Source of the DNA: a virus
Lineage: Duplodnaviria; Caudoviricetes
Length of the DNA stretch: 33,781 nucleotides
IMG/VR virus record: IMGVR_UViG_3300016464_000080
Coordinates: 1-33,781 of that record
Direction: 5' to 3' (one strand)
The first letter of the stretch is position 1; each line of letters starts with the position of its first letter. The translations under genes and the position numbers were made by a program. The notes under the pieces are model-generated. The model was not told the origin of the DNA. It worked only from the letters and a program-made list of their open reading frames with translations, and did no database searches. Below, piece after piece: positions 29,817 to 33,723 of the stretch.

Positions 29817-30659
29817 TTAATCACCACAAAAACATGGGATTGAGTCATCAGCTTTGTCAAACATTGGCATTTGATCTTTAGCAAAATCCATCATTGATTG
29901 ATAGGAATCTCGATCTTTTCTAAAACGCGCACCATCTGGCTTGCTTGCCAATGCCAATGCCAATGCCTCCATTTTCGCCCACCAAATTGCTCTTTCTGGT
30001 TTTTCAGCAATCAAACTTCTGGTTTGTGATTCACCTTTTAAAAAACAAAGGTCACAATTTCCATGATAAGTAACACCGTTGAAATTTGGCAATTCAAGAT
30101 CAAAAGGTTGTGATTTCCAAAAATCTCCAACATCTTTTTTGCCAATCCCTGCTGATACTAATGGCGTTCTATCTCTGGGTATTTTTGCTGCGCGTCTAGG
30201 TTCATCAGCACGAATGCCAACCCAAGACATATATTCACCTTCAGATCGTGTTTCACAAAATTTAATGGATAACAAATAGTTAGCAATAGTTCTAATTTTC
30301 ATCTCTATTGTGCAAAATCTTGTCACTGGATTTGGCAAATAGTTCTTTTTGCGAATTACTGCTTCAAACGGTTCGCCGTTTCGACTAGCTGTTTCGTAGT
30401 TAACAATTTGCCAACGATCTTTTGATTCTTCAGCGTCTTTGTATTCCAACCAAACAATCGGCACATTCCAGTTAACTTCACAATCATGCACAAACTTTAA
30501 TGTTGCCTCATCTTCTTTTCCAGTATTTGCAAAACAAACAACCGCATCACTTGGCAGGCTCATCTGGTGAGCCTCTAAAACTTTGTAAAGCATGTACGCC
30601 GATGTTCTGCCACCTGAAAAACTGATACAGGTCGGTTCTGTGATTAAAAACGGATTCAT
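29817..30659 (-). CDS. PAPS-reductase-family (adenine nucleotide alpha hydrolase) protein
   Basis: SFSGGRTS PP-loop, FANTGKE, RFCT, GIRADE, GNCDLCF, CFCGD. Confidence 0.88.
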   Translation of the reverse strand: MNPFLITEPTCISFSGGRTSAYMLYKVLEAHQMSLPSDAVVCFANTGKEDEATLKFVHDCEVNWNVPIVWLEYKDAEESKDRWQIVNYETASRNGEPFEAVIRKKNYLPNPVTRFCTIEMKIRTIANYLLSIKFCETRSEGEYMSWVGIRADEPRRAAKIPRDRTPLVSAGIGKKDVGDFWKSQPFDLELPNFNGVTYHGNCDLCFLKGESQTRSLIAEKPERAIWWAKMEALALALASKPDGARFRKDRDSYQSMMDFAKDQMPMFDKADDSIPCFCGD

Positions 30660-31078
30660 GCATGCTCCTTTACTAAAACCTCTGTTGCTGCTATCTCGGC
30701 GTAAACCTTCGTCACATGAAGGCTAATGATCTGACAGTCATCTTTGTAAACAACCCCGTTCATGCCATCGAGAAATGCCTTTGCTACGTTGTCCAAGTCT
30801 GGTTTCTTTGTTGGTTTTTCTTGACCTGACAAACAAGCCTCAGTGCGTTTTTTTGAGTATGACGCTGGTACGGTATTCCTGATGTATAAAAAAACCTCTA
30901 CAGGCGTTTCTAGTGGCTCTGTTGCGCCCATTGCTGCCTTTGCGAACATCTTTATTTCGTCTTCGTAAGATTTTGTTTTGGCAGGCGTGTAAGTTTGGAC
31001 AAAGTTTCCAATCTTTCTGAATCTTGGACGGGCTTTTCCCTGGGGTGGTCCGTAGACAGTGAAGTTAACCATTAGCAT
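30656..31078 (-). CDS. rusA: RusA Holliday junction resolvase
   Basis: GKARPRF, KPDLDNVAKAFLDGMNGVVYKDDCQI. Confidence 0.93.
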   Translation of the reverse strand: MLMVNFTVYGPPQGKARPRFRKIGNFVQTYTPAKTKSYEDEIKMFAKAAMGATEPLETPVEVFLYIRNTVPASYSKKRTEACLSGQEKPTKKPDLDNVAKAFLDGMNGVVYKDDCQIISLHVTKVYAEIAATEVLVKEHA

Positions 31079-31292: not shown

Positions 31293-31335
31293 CTTTGACC
31301 ATGTTTAATAAACTATGGGCTTCAGTCTTGGTCAT
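31117..31335 (-). CDS. Hypothetical protein
   Basis: ATGA coupling to the methyltransferase stop; MTKTEAHSLL...ALVLTGD. Confidence 0.6.
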   Translation of the reverse strand: MTKTEAHSLLNMVKDGTYFKYRKIRKALVLTGDVCGLPGRPRKQTDRTLCTNGGEPYRAFALYGQDFSERLS

Positions 31336-31988
31336 ATTAAATTCTCTTGTTTCATTACTGGTTTTTCAATAAACATATCGACTTGCTTGCTGGCTTGCTC
31401 GATGCGTTTACAAGCAATATCAAAATATTTTGGTTCGCGTTCAATGCCAATGAACTTGCGTCCCATCTGGATAGCCGCCACGCCTGTTGTGCCACTTCCC
31501 ATAAATGGGTCTAGGATTGTTTTAGGCAGGTTTTTGCATTGTTCAATACACCATCGCATCAATTCAAGTGGCTTTTGAGTTGGATGCTCATCACCTTTAT
31601 TTTTTTTGTAATGGCTAAATTGACGCAAGGCTTTTTGTTGACTTGTCCAGGCAAGTTCTCCATCAGCAAAATCACCTCCCATTCGTTTTTCCCAATAAAG
31701 CCATCCCATTGAAGCAGGTAAGTAATCAGCAAAATAGTTACCACCCCAAATTATTTGTAGATCGCCTGCAATCTGGATTGCATCAAAAACTTCTTTGCTA
31801 GGTCTTTGATTGTCCCATCCCATTTTTTTTCCATTGGTTCGTTTGCTACCTCTTGTACGTTGCGCGCCACCGTCTTGTCCAATGCCATAGGGAGGATCAG
31901 TAATCACCGCATCCACCTTATCTAACGTTGGCAGAATGTCCATGCAATCGCCTAAATAAAGTGTTGCGTCACCAATTTCAATCTTCAT
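31332..31988 (-). CDS. DNA amino-methyltransferase (N6A/N4C, beta class)
   Basis: TDPPYG preceding HPTQKP and DPFMGSGTT. Confidence 0.95.
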   Translation of the reverse strand: MKIEIGDATLYLGDCMDILPTLDKVDAVITDPPYGIGQDGGAQRTRGSKRTNGKKMGWDNQRPSKEVFDAIQIAGDLQIIWGGNYFADYLPASMGWLYWEKRMGGDFADGELAWTSQQKALRQFSHYKKNKGDEHPTQKPLELMRWCIEQCKNLPKTILDPFMGSGTTGVAAIQMGRKFIGIEREPKYFDIACKRIEQASKQVDMFIEKPVMKQENLI

Positions 31989-32353
31989 GATCTGCCCCTC
32001 AATACAGCCAGTCTCTGACGCACAGAATCAGGCATTGGAGCGGCTTTTTTCCAGTCCTGTTCTATCTTCATCAAGGCAGGGTCTTTTTCTGTCTTAGGCG
32101 CTATTTCGGGTATCTCTGCGCCATCCCATCGTTGTTGATTTAAGTAGACAAGTGGGGCTGGAATAAAGGCTCCGTTTGACTTTAACCATTGCTCGGTTGT
32201 CTTTAGCCATTCAACGTGCTTGATGATCTGGTCAGCTTGCGTTTCGCAAAAGTTCTTGACCCATTTTTTCTTGCATTCTGCTTTTGCTCCTTTTCTTGGG
32301 CTAGCCGGATATGCTTTCCAGAATCTGTCAAACCCTGTTTCAAATTGTTCCAT
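31985..32353 (-). CDS. Phage replication protein, C-terminal-domain-only form
   Basis: FDRFWKAYP...K..AK...W...FIPAPLVYLNQQRWD; GGAG RBS; no N-terminal HTH. Confidence 0.75.
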   Translation of the reverse strand: MEQFETGFDRFWKAYPASPRKGAKAECKKKWVKNFCETQADQIIKHVEWLKTTEQWLKSNGAFIPAPLVYLNQQRWDGAEIPEIAPKTEKDPALMKIEQDWKKAAPMPDSVRQRLAVLRGRS

Positions 32354-32356
32354 TTA

Positions 32357-32704
32357 CTACTCCGTTCTGTAATCAGTGTCGTGCTTGTTGCCTTTGGCTT
32401 TGTTGCAGGTTCCGCACAAGACCTGCAAATTGTTTTCATCGTTTGCCAAGTGTGGAAAATACTTCCTCGGCTTGATGTGGTCAACATTAATTTCAGTCCA
32501 TTTTTTAATACTCCTTTTGCATCTTAAACAGGTTGCACCATACTTTGCAATCGTCTTTGCTTTCAATACAAACCACTCGTTACTTCTCAAAAACTCATCA
32601 CCACTCTTTTTTATCGCTTCTGCTAGTTCGCTGTCTGTTAGCTTACTAAGTTCTTCTCTTGATCTTTGCTTTATCGTCCTAGCTTTAACTTCCTCTGTTT
32701 TCAT
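32357..32704 (-). CDS. HNH endonuclease
   Basis: CLRC...VDHIKP...NLQVLCGTCNKAKG; AAGG before the ATG at 32704. Confidence 0.9.
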   Translation of the reverse strand: MKTEEVKARTIKQRSREELSKLTDSELAEAIKKSGDEFLRSNEWFVLKAKTIAKYGATCLRCKRSIKKWTEINVDHIKPRKYFPHLANDENNLQVLCGTCNKAKGNKHDTDYRTE

Positions 32705-32716
32705 GTTGACCTTTGG

Positions 32717-33089
32717 TGATTGTTTGAGCAAAGCACAGCCTTACCGTAACAAAACGGGTTTCGCTCTGTGCTCGATGTTGACCTTCGGAGCCATGTCATC
32801 GCATCGCACTACCTCAGACTGTTTCAACCACCGCGCTCTAAGGATTCGCCCACGCTCCCAGCTTTGGCTTGCTCGTGTAACTGGGTATCTCAGACCTGAC
32901 CATCGACGTACCGCATCAGGCTGTCCAAAAGCAAAAACCCTACAAGATACTCTGCGGTCTTGGCTCTTGGCGAGAGCAACAACAAGACGATTGACGCGAA
33001 TCAAAAATCTCGCTTGCTGTCGTGCAAGACCGCACAGTTCCCTGTAGGGTTTCGGATTCGCGTTAACGTCTAATTGCCACACTAGACGG
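32717..33089 (-). ncRNA. Large structured non-coding RNA/leader (two domains)
   Basis: Several perfect 9-10 bp inverted repeats, G-U pairs valid only on the minus strand, upstream consensus promoter. Confidence 0.6.
32927..32944 (-). terminator. U-tract ending the long stem (UGUAGGGUUUUUGCUUUU)
   Basis: 3' arm of the 10-bp stem followed by a U-rich run. Confidence 0.5.
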
Positions 33090-33094
33090 TTTGG

Positions 33095-33121
33095 ATTATA
33101 CACAGTTTTTTACTTTGTCAA
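33095..33121 (-). promoter_or_regulatory. Sigma70 promoter with perfect hexamers and short spacer
   Basis: TTGACA (33121-33116), 15 bp, TATAAT (33100-33095). Confidence 0.75.
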
Positions 33122-33313
33122 CTAAATTTTTGCCTTGCTTGGCAAGCGATGAATTGTAGGAATGATCGTGATTGACTTTCTGAACTTTGTCACGGTTTCT
33201 TCTTTGTTTGGATCGTCCTTCCGAACCGTGGTCATTGTTGACTTGTCGCGCTGGCGCTGGAGTTCAAGTCCGATGCTGTCTTGTCCTGTTCTCCACTGAA
33301 ATGCGTTTGCCAT
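33122..33313 (-). CDS. Hypothetical protein after cro
   Basis: 63-aa basic ORF whose start overlaps the cro 3' end. Confidence 0.6.
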   Translation of the reverse strand: MANAFQWRTGQDSIGLELQRQRDKSTMTTVRKDDPNKEETVTKFRKSITIIPTIHRLPSKAKI

Positions 33314-33450
33314 TCCTTAATTTCCTTGAGTTGGTTAAGTCTTTTCTGAGGGATTTCATCCCACATCGTCACTGCTGCGCGAGAGATTCCCAAGAGCTTG
33401 GCAAGTTTACTCTTGGAGCCAGCGATTTCAACTGCTTTTTGTATGTTCAT
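33232..33450 (-). CDS. cro: Cro-like HTH regulator
   Basis: MNIQKAVEIAGSKSKLAKLLGISRAAVTMWDEIP..R; AAGGA RBS before the ATG at 33450. Confidence 0.88.
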   Translation of the reverse strand: MNIQKAVEIAGSKSKLAKLLGISRAAVTMWDEIPQKRLNQLKEIKEWQTHFSGEQDKTASDLNSSASATSQQ

Positions 33451-33629: not shown

Positions 33630-33723
33630 GTTAAGATTGTAACCTTAACAAATCACTCAACATTAGGGAAAGTCCTTAGACAAGCACCTTAACAGTTTGT
33701 TAAGATCACATCACCTTAACAAA
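33630..33723. promoter_or_regulatory. Divergent promoter/operator region
   Basis: Five GTTAAG/CTTAAC half-sites; plus-strand TAGACA-18-TAAGAT; minus-strand TACAAT. Confidence 0.75.

Follow-up and report, generated by a model that had tools for sequence, protein, structure and literature searches.

A structured non-coding cassette that exchanges with initiator genes in a lambdoid podovirus, and its proposed role as an RNA-primed origin

We analysed a cassette in the 33,781-nucleotide (nt) stretch IMGVR_UViG_3300016464_000080 (the window, meaning this whole stretch), the record of a near-complete podovirus (98% completeness by CheckV). The cassette is a conserved, structured non-coding element at 32705-33088 on the minus strand, with a gene for a 122-amino-acid (aa) initiator-like protein downstream of it. 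It lies between the cro and RusA genes, in a slot where cassette and full-length replication initiators replace each other. The element is made of two modules, 5' A and 3' B, which shuffle independently: A1-A5 combine with B1-B5, these labels being coined in this analysis, and the window carries A1+B1. Slot exchange, a covarying fold and a direct repeat whose two copies change together suggest that the cassette is probably a replication origin primed by RNA through an R-loop, with a control leader resembling C4 and an accessory protein that recruits helicase.

Cassette and full-length initiators replace each other in one slot

The layout of the window is lambdoid, with cro, the region under study, methyltransferase, RusA, NinB, terminase and virion genes, and with exonuclease and single-stranded-DNA-binding protein (SSB) genes at the opposite end. 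The slot and the short gene within it are defined by the following features.

33232-33450, minus strand: cro-like repressor gene, 72 aa, ATG at 33450 (PF14549 P22_Cro, E 5e-09); left landmark of the slot
30656-31078, minus strand: RusA resolvase gene (PF05866, E 9.9e-35); right landmark and unbiased anchor
31985-32353, minus strand: open reading frame (ORF) of the 122-aa protein, with GGAG 6 nt upstream of its ATG; consists of the helical domain that forms the C-terminal part of phage initiators (residues 4-80) and a tail of two helices

As RusA favours neither the RNA nor an initiator, 80 loci anchored on it served as an unbiased control. A search made with an alignment of the long proteins yielded 78 new loci, every one a short form and 77 of them accompanied by a B module; the control was rebuilt on RusA and DUF1376. 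The short protein was present in 14 of the 80 RusA loci and was accompanied by a B RNA in 13 of them, the remaining locus being cut by a contig end. A full-length initiator was present in 53, none of which contained an A or B module, and 13 loci, mostly cut off, had neither. The RNA therefore does not occur equally with full-length initiators (13/14 versus 0/53 in the cro-RusA slot), as the original prediction had anticipated. The B1 covariance model likewise gave no match in 40 full-initiator records. At the sister locus L590, which has a RusA 96% identical to that of the window, a related cro gene and related 63-, 72- and 75-aa genes, a 249-aa DUF1376 initiator with iteron-like repeats replaces the cassette. 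The linkage between short protein and RNA is kept even where their order is swapped (MW202484.1, L384, L617 and L622); in the complete genome MW202484.1, the RNA is downstream of the short gene, and helicase and primase are not annotated.

Two side observations concern the occupants of this slot. Full-length initiator genes of sister phages have a short leader of their own without a B module (L590:4907-4981; L457 upstream of 9398), and this L590/L457 leader gives a sub-threshold int-alpA match (E 0.01, 31.7 bits versus 35.8), pointing to a regulatory leader before either kind of initiator. In addition, at least four further structured RNA classes, B2-B5, occupy the same slot with the same short protein (L001:2728-3000, L275:2553-2830, L318:2555-2880, L277:2552-2850). 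B2 covaries strongly and has a loop whose changes track those at a distal 3' site, and none of B2-B5 has an Rfam match.

The claim that the 122-aa protein has its own ribosome-binding site and starts directly at its domain was borne out. PHROG replication-initiation and primosomal families match it in their C-terminal part only (phrog_9474, positions 176-254 of 288, E 1.5e-14), long proteins share its domain at 45-60% identity, and profile hits link its last two helices to the tails of sister-phage full-length initiators. Because it has 892 homologs of near-equal length, and because stop-to-stop frames measure 118-183 aa in 80 of 80 viral loci, the short protein is an established family and not a broken gene. 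These frames, and a profile match confined to the C-terminal part, indicate that the family has no N-terminal origin-binding domain. Iteron-like repeats were found in four of five full-length initiator genes tested and are absent from 31985-32740 (0 repeat families in the window gene). A model built from a 150-sequence alignment reached a pLDDT of 90.6, compared with 48 for a single-sequence model. Its best structural match, SPP1 G39P (1no1), is weak (Z 4.5, rmsd 2.8, 62 aligned); comparison with DnaD (2i5u) gave Z 2.7, and Foldseek returned no match. In keeping with the role presumed for this domain and tail in full-length initiators, the protein may be an accessory adaptor that recruits the host helicase.

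The original prediction was also right that iterons are lacking, that the next gene encodes a methyltransferase (PF01555) and that no helicase is nearby. The 44 (33+11) window ORFs scanned include no gene for a helicase, primase, polymerase or integrase and none for partition, and DnaB_C has no match in the window. A separate initiator or primase-helicase in a missing part of the genome had been considered; the record is 98% complete and showed none among those ORFs, and 39 of 40 near-complete RNA-bearing records are without a DnaB-type helicase (DnaB_C in one). Six genomes of 33-35 kilobases (kb) showed no helicase, primase, polymerase, initiator or integrase by Pfam, the scan covering 185 of 198 cluster representatives of at least 110 aa from eight records with terminal repeats. 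ParA/ParB partition genes were likewise absent from the scanned ORFs of the window and six complete relatives, apart from one ParB_N domain fused to a methylase.

Structure of the element and its co-varying repeat

The non-coding stretch folds better than 100 of 100 shuffled sequences (z -2.9). The element and the sequence before it are divided as follows.

33095-33121, minus strand: putative promoter, TTGACA at 33116-33121 and TATAAT at 33095-33100, 15-nt spacer; activity presumed from the hexamers
32705-33088, minus strand: whole non-coding element, modules A and B1, conserved and structured
33067-33088, minus strand: 5' hairpin of module A with a GUGGCA loop (33075-33080), from the fold; predicted to pair with a GCCA loop at 32964-32974
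33055-33066, minus strand: hypervariable specificity segment X of module A, identified by complementarity to X'
32927-33052, minus strand: long hairpin of module A (inverted repeat, fold), arms 33025-33052 and 32935-32962, holding target X' (32991-33002) and a U-rich tract (32927-32937)
32705-32922, minus strand: structured domain of module B1, with P1 (32894-32922), P2 (32857-32885), a P3/P4 pseudoknot (32812-32855), a loop-linker tertiary helix and a 3' stem (32726-32771)
32777-32785, minus strand: direct repeat with co-varying copies, 5' copy; candidate RNA guide
32705-32713, minus strand: 3' copy of the repeat, with an invariant CACC just before it; its template strand is the proposed guide target and R-loop site

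The original prediction described some 390 nt of densely paired sequence under a TTGACA/TATAAT promoter. Dense pairing, conservation and covariation stand, but the stretch holds two modules and not one RNA, and an HNH gene separates it from the 122-aa gene in the window. Both promoter hexamers are present and the -10 is conserved in 128 of 138 distinct homolog upstream stretches; the -35 is not, since 67 of those 128 have none at 12-22 nt. The 15-nt spacing of the hexamers is the reason why a consensus scan missed them.

The fold of B1 was evaluated on 46 of 48 non-redundant B1 sequences, the two with long insertions being left out. A 37-pair structure that includes two crossing helices has 93.5% of its cells paired and shows two-sided change at 20 of the 37 pairs. 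Its covariation score was 0.408, compared with 0.155 for shuffled alignments (0/500) and at most 0.107 when the structure was slid along the alignment. The top covarying column pairs, ranked by mutual information, are complementary helices. Covarying structure is therefore present upstream of homologues, as had been expected. Three invariant and several frequent G-U pairs assign the fold to the sense strand, and GNRA loops cap optional hairpins. The GGUGG/CACC pairing and the inner hairpin of P1 are invariant and hence give no covariation signal. The A1 pattern occurs in an estimated 350 or so stretches. Downstream of A1 in L256, B1 has an internal deletion of about 90 model positions and keeps P1 and the 3' part. 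A scan of bacterial genomes with a 16-mer gave chance matches except at one of 120 loci, a true element on a 2-kb contig (L521).

An open sense frame in 36 of 89 distinct A1+B1 elements, and a 120-aa frame there in the window, could be read as the decayed or recoded N-terminal half of an initiator gene. However, 40 of the 89 have an open frame on neither strand and the element lengths spread over all three phases (41/29/19), so that A1+B1 is not a conserved reading frame. Moreover, the 120-aa frame begins within the -10 region, and neither Pfam nor PHROG matches it. Together with the strong base-pair covariation, the elements lacking a frame largely refute this identity for the element, to which we give hardly any credence. 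A self-splicing intron was rejected because there is no upstream exon for an N-terminal domain.

The direct repeat of B1 is a purine-rich stretch of 7-9 nt in two copies 72 nt apart. In 45 distinct pairs, 304 of 360 positions were identical between copies, compared with 194 +/- 8 after shuffling (maximum 226 in 20,000); the pattern used for this first count missed six sequences. On a tree of 46 tips built without the repeat columns, the two copies need 52 and 53 changes, at least 48 of them shared, and the tips carry 21 distinct 7-mers. Identical copies were found in 34 of 48 pairs. Among 15 mismatches, 8 are 5'G/3'A and none is 5'A/3'G, 5 lie at the edges of a shifted register and 2 fit no wobble. 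This polarity is what pairing between the 5' copy and the complement of the 3' copy would produce, with rG-dT tolerated.

The cassette is found at several genome positions, and the gene next to B1 in the window and in a few other loci is listed here.

32357-32731, minus strand: intact-looking HNH endonuclease gene (PF01844, E 1.9e-11), an optional insert; ATG 32704, directly after the 3' repeat copy, is its more likely start

These facts would fit a selfish or mobile element that travelled together with the HNH gene, its repeat being a target-site duplication. Nevertheless, HNH is only an occasional insert (3 of 80 homolog loci) and phages depending on the cassette have no other initiator. The repeat lies inside a conserved element and both copies keep changing together, unlike a one-time duplication, and no empty site with a single repeat copy was seen by eye in L590. 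We thus regard this explanation as very improbable.

Of the 49 non-redundant B1 elements, 13 have perfect matches to the DnaA-box consensus (13 in 18.2 kb versus 6 in 215.5 kb of flank, a 26-fold enrichment), as do 6 of 69 B2 elements. These boxes stand at several positions, with at least four gains, in or beside stems. At 33096-33104 of the window, a relaxed match to the DnaA box on the opposite strand overlaps the -10 region, and this context is the commonest among A1 promoters (30/128). A literature search gave no support for a DnaA-box role at pBR322.

The location of these boxes is also compatible with a structure that acts in the form of single-stranded DNA: the displaced sense strand would carry a signal for priming or helicase loading, and transcription would only open the duplex. 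Sense DNA has the same sequence as the RNA, and comparative data cannot separate the two. By contrast, G-U pairs, GNRA loops, a conserved -10 immediately ahead of the first hairpin and a module A of antisense type point more to RNA, and the DNA-based explanation appears to us rather improbable.

In module A, segment X (9-12 nt) and X' of A1 share a mean longest Watson-Crick run of 8.5 nt, compared with 3.6 for shuffled partners (maximum 4.2 in 10,000), among 64 distinct variants; the complementary run reaches at least 7 nt in 58 of the 64. The loop of the 5' hairpin and its target also change together between families A1-A4, judged by eye. We suggest from this bipartite pairing that module A may be a C4-like control leader. 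Its long hairpin resembles a terminator and may terminate transcription; a terminator scan did not call it. On the opposite strand, the promoter scan called nothing inside the element.

A proposed RNA-primed origin weighed against other explanations

Beyond the conserved structure and the repeat, we infer each step of the following mechanism. A transcript from the upstream promoter, with its conserved -10, would cross the cassette. The loop and X of module A, acting in cis or supplied by a second transcript, would pair with their targets in the long hairpin with its U-rich tail, and this pairing would decide between termination and read-through into B1, the outcome being copy control or the exclusion of phages with the same X. 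Once B1 is folded, its 5' repeat would pair with the template strand of the 3' repeat and seed a persistent R-loop, which could open the DNA and expose the other strand, or prime synthesis. The host helicase would then be loaded with the help of the short protein, or via DnaA or restart proteins where that protein is missing. Larger phages that encode an initiator and a helicase of their own may have a second origin in the cassette.

The idea of an RNA-dependent origin is favoured by covariation, slot exclusion, the scarcity of helicases, the co-varying repeat and the DnaA-box enrichment. What needs correcting is the notion that the RNA strictly stands in for the lost domain of the headless protein. 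The RNA also occurs without the short protein (7 of 50 B1 loci, 13 of 77 A1 loci) and beside a full initiator (G028; B2 in 4 of 40 full-initiator records).

The template strand is the simplest partner of the repeat because 22 of 48 variants, the window included, have no guide complement inside the RNA region, and because the U-tract of module A stays fixed when the guide changes. Alternatively, the copies may match some third strand other than template DNA, such as an antisense RNA or the U-tract in a folding switch, or be bound by one protein at both sites. The commonest guides can indeed pair with the invariant U-tract (18 of 48 variants), and an antisense RNA would give equal G-U polarity. 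However, this explanation has to face the same fixed U-tract and the same 22 variants, and the repeat co-varies also in phages that lack the short protein; we judge it quite improbable.

Several observations weigh against an RNA-primed origin, or against one programmed by the repeat. Within B1, the G/A mismatches stem from only about two or three clades, the U-tract pairing just described offers the guide another partner, and the window's own B1 has no DnaA box. A conserved antisense promoter was not evident by eye. B2 has no co-varying direct repeat. The short protein is missing from the B1 and A1 loci counted above, some with cro and RusA in place, although these carriers are mostly fragments or phages with other replication genes. 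Full initiators coexist with the cassette in the complete 55.8-kb G028, where an intact A1+B1 follows the terminase gene and a DUF1376 initiator and a DnaB-type helicase are encoded elsewhere. The four B2-positive full-initiator records are all among the nine that are DnaB-positive, and A+B2 lies within 4 kb of 3 of 80 DUF1376 loci. G036 carries A1+B3 beside its own SF2 helicase and Toprim primase, and the fragment G054 carries B1 with a DnaB-type gene. In L260, L276, L286, L304 and L314, A1+B1 precedes virion or terminase-region genes.

Strong B2 matches were found in 0 of 31 full-initiator records without DnaB, with one weak partial hit, and the cassette that stands beside a full initiator and helicase lies outside the slot. 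Coexistence would be explicable if an RNA origin served the prophage state alongside lytic replication, for which mycobacteriophages provide a precedent in the accessible text of PMC7157519. No co-varying direct repeat was found in B3-B5, of which only 2-4 distinct members each are available. As observations in their own right, G028 is a natural two-origin candidate (cassette after the intein-bearing terminase gene, L456:13402-13795; initiator and helicase, L457:7452-9398), and L089, L092, L119, L282 and L295 have cro, A+B RNA and RusA with no initiator-like gene, HNH alone following B1 in L119.

The cassette could instead control transcription of downstream genes, as an attenuator with an antiterminator or roadblock, while replication takes another route such as recombination-dependent initiation. 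The two-site C4-like design of module A and its U-tailed hairpin, the position before late genes in several phages and the coexistence with full initiators and helicase would fit such a device, and genes for exonuclease, SSB and RusA are present. However, it leaves unexplained the exclusion in the slot (13/14 versus 0/53), the linkage to the short protein on either side and the DnaA-box gains, and full-length initiator genes have their own short leader without a B module. We therefore consider transcription control unlikely and retain the RNA-primed origin as our preferred reading.

A more far-reaching version of that origin is offered only tentatively, and we lean against it in its full form. 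In a large group of freshwater-type podoviruses, a programmable RNA might replace the iteron-binding half of the initiator. A pseudoknotted scaffold would present a 7-9-nt guide that reads the template, a GGUGG linker would hold CACC on the other strand, and the RNA would clamp the origin open while the remaining half of the protein binds there and loads the host helicase. The slot would be shared by no fewer than five unrelated scaffolds (B1-B5) together with several leaders of C4 type.

The remaining features of the window lie around the slot.

31332-31988, minus strand: DNA methyltransferase (N6/N4) gene (PF01555, E 1.6e-27), next to the 122-aa ORF

This gene is part of the cassette swapped relative to L590, where none lies between cro and RusA. 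The end of cro is overlapped by a 63-aa ORF (33122-33313) that matches neither Pfam nor PHROG and is conserved in L590 and L593. Upstream of cro, an operator-like motif of 9-10 nt stands in four copies at 33641-33721; no cI-like repressor or integrase was seen in the window record. A PAPS-reductase-like gene lies in the nin region at 29817-30659 (phrog_424, E 6.6e-50).

Comparison with known initiators and RNA-based origins

Origins primed by RNA have been described in ColE1 plasmids, in T4 and in a few prophages of mycobacteriophages, but are not known as a general alternative to the lambda-O slot. Hundreds of phage contigs carry this undescribed structured RNA, which swaps one-for-one with protein initiators. 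Its natural repeat variants are ready specificity groups for studying how a transcript re-threads into its template. If the proposal is true, it would explain replication of many initiator-less phage genomes and offer small new replicons; if the programmable-RNA version is also true, RNA-defined origins would be a common, swappable mode of phage replication. We found no description of the element in the literature covered; subscription papers and the supplements of the Weinberg motif papers fell outside it and could hold such motifs.

Lambda-O-like initiators (DUF1376, HTH_36 and others; phrog_9474, phrog_270, phrog_9327) occupy the same slot, include the same C-terminal domain family in many long forms and end in the tail seen in sister phages. 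The 122-aa protein differs from them in having neither an N-terminal domain nor iteron-like repeats.

The C4 antisense RNA of P1/P7 (RF01695) has two segments, two targets and one hypervariable specificity segment, according to the accessible parts of PMC5320573 and PMC2864571. Module A resembles it as there described in its bipartite pairing with a variable specificity segment. Unlike the C4 target, that of module A is in a U-tailed hairpin before a non-coding RNA and not at a ribosome-binding site, and the three-stem cloverleaf and RNase P site of C4 have no demonstrated counterpart. C4 is further marked by RNase P processing and action in trans. Rfam, including RF01695, gave nothing in the window at gathering thresholds and one chance hit at E up to 10. 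Nothing was found at the element in 20 homolog loci, and nine loci with other modules gave only the sub-threshold int-alpA match on the L590 leader. The covariance model RF02932 (Betaproteobacteria-1) found nothing in this genome at E up to 10.

Phage T4 oriF and oriG consist of a promoter and a downstream persistent RNA-DNA hybrid that acts as an origin, with a DNA-unwinding element and the phage's own replisome (PMC4412123, in part). The cassette as proposed here would likewise be a promoter-plus-hybrid phage origin; that portion of the T4 account mentions neither a conserved folded RNA nor a guide repeat.

Cluster A mycobacteriophages (Alma, LadyBird, RedRock, Gladiator and Et2Brutus) have RNA-based prophage origins beside parABS, whose deletion leaves lytic growth normal, as given in the accessible text of PMC7157519. 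They too have a phage non-coding region, there a transcribed one, that alternates with a protein initiator, there of RepA type, and the same text gives neither structure nor guide repeat for them. In contrast to these prophage origins, most carriers of the present cassette have no other initiator or helicase, and it would have to serve lytic growth as well.

The closest likeness is to ColE1, in which RNA II forms a persistent hybrid by pairing an rG stretch with a dC stretch in the template (relevant portions of PMC4412123 and PMC5043065). Like the ColE1 pre-primer RNA II with its antisense RNA I, as those portions present them, the element would be a folded RNA of several hundred nt from a promoter, here putative, with no origin-binding initiator and with a 5' control element. 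In both, an upstream RNA segment has the same sequence as a downstream site and could pair with the template there, a pairing that is proposed in our case. The differences, drawn from the same portions, are that the pairing segment here is a variable 7-9-mer and not a G run, and that control looks C4-like within the same strand and not exerted by a counter-transcript. Furthermore, the cassette is a phage element that takes turns with protein initiators, and the C-terminal domain of an initiator usually accompanies it. ColE1-type origins are further characterised by a counter-transcribed antisense inhibitor of about 110 nt, RNase H processing and extension by Pol I. Blastn gave no match of the element to 72,556 PLSDB plasmids or of B1 to INPHARED phages. 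We therefore favour the view that the cassette would work like a ColE1-type origin, yet is not a member of ColE1 by sequence.

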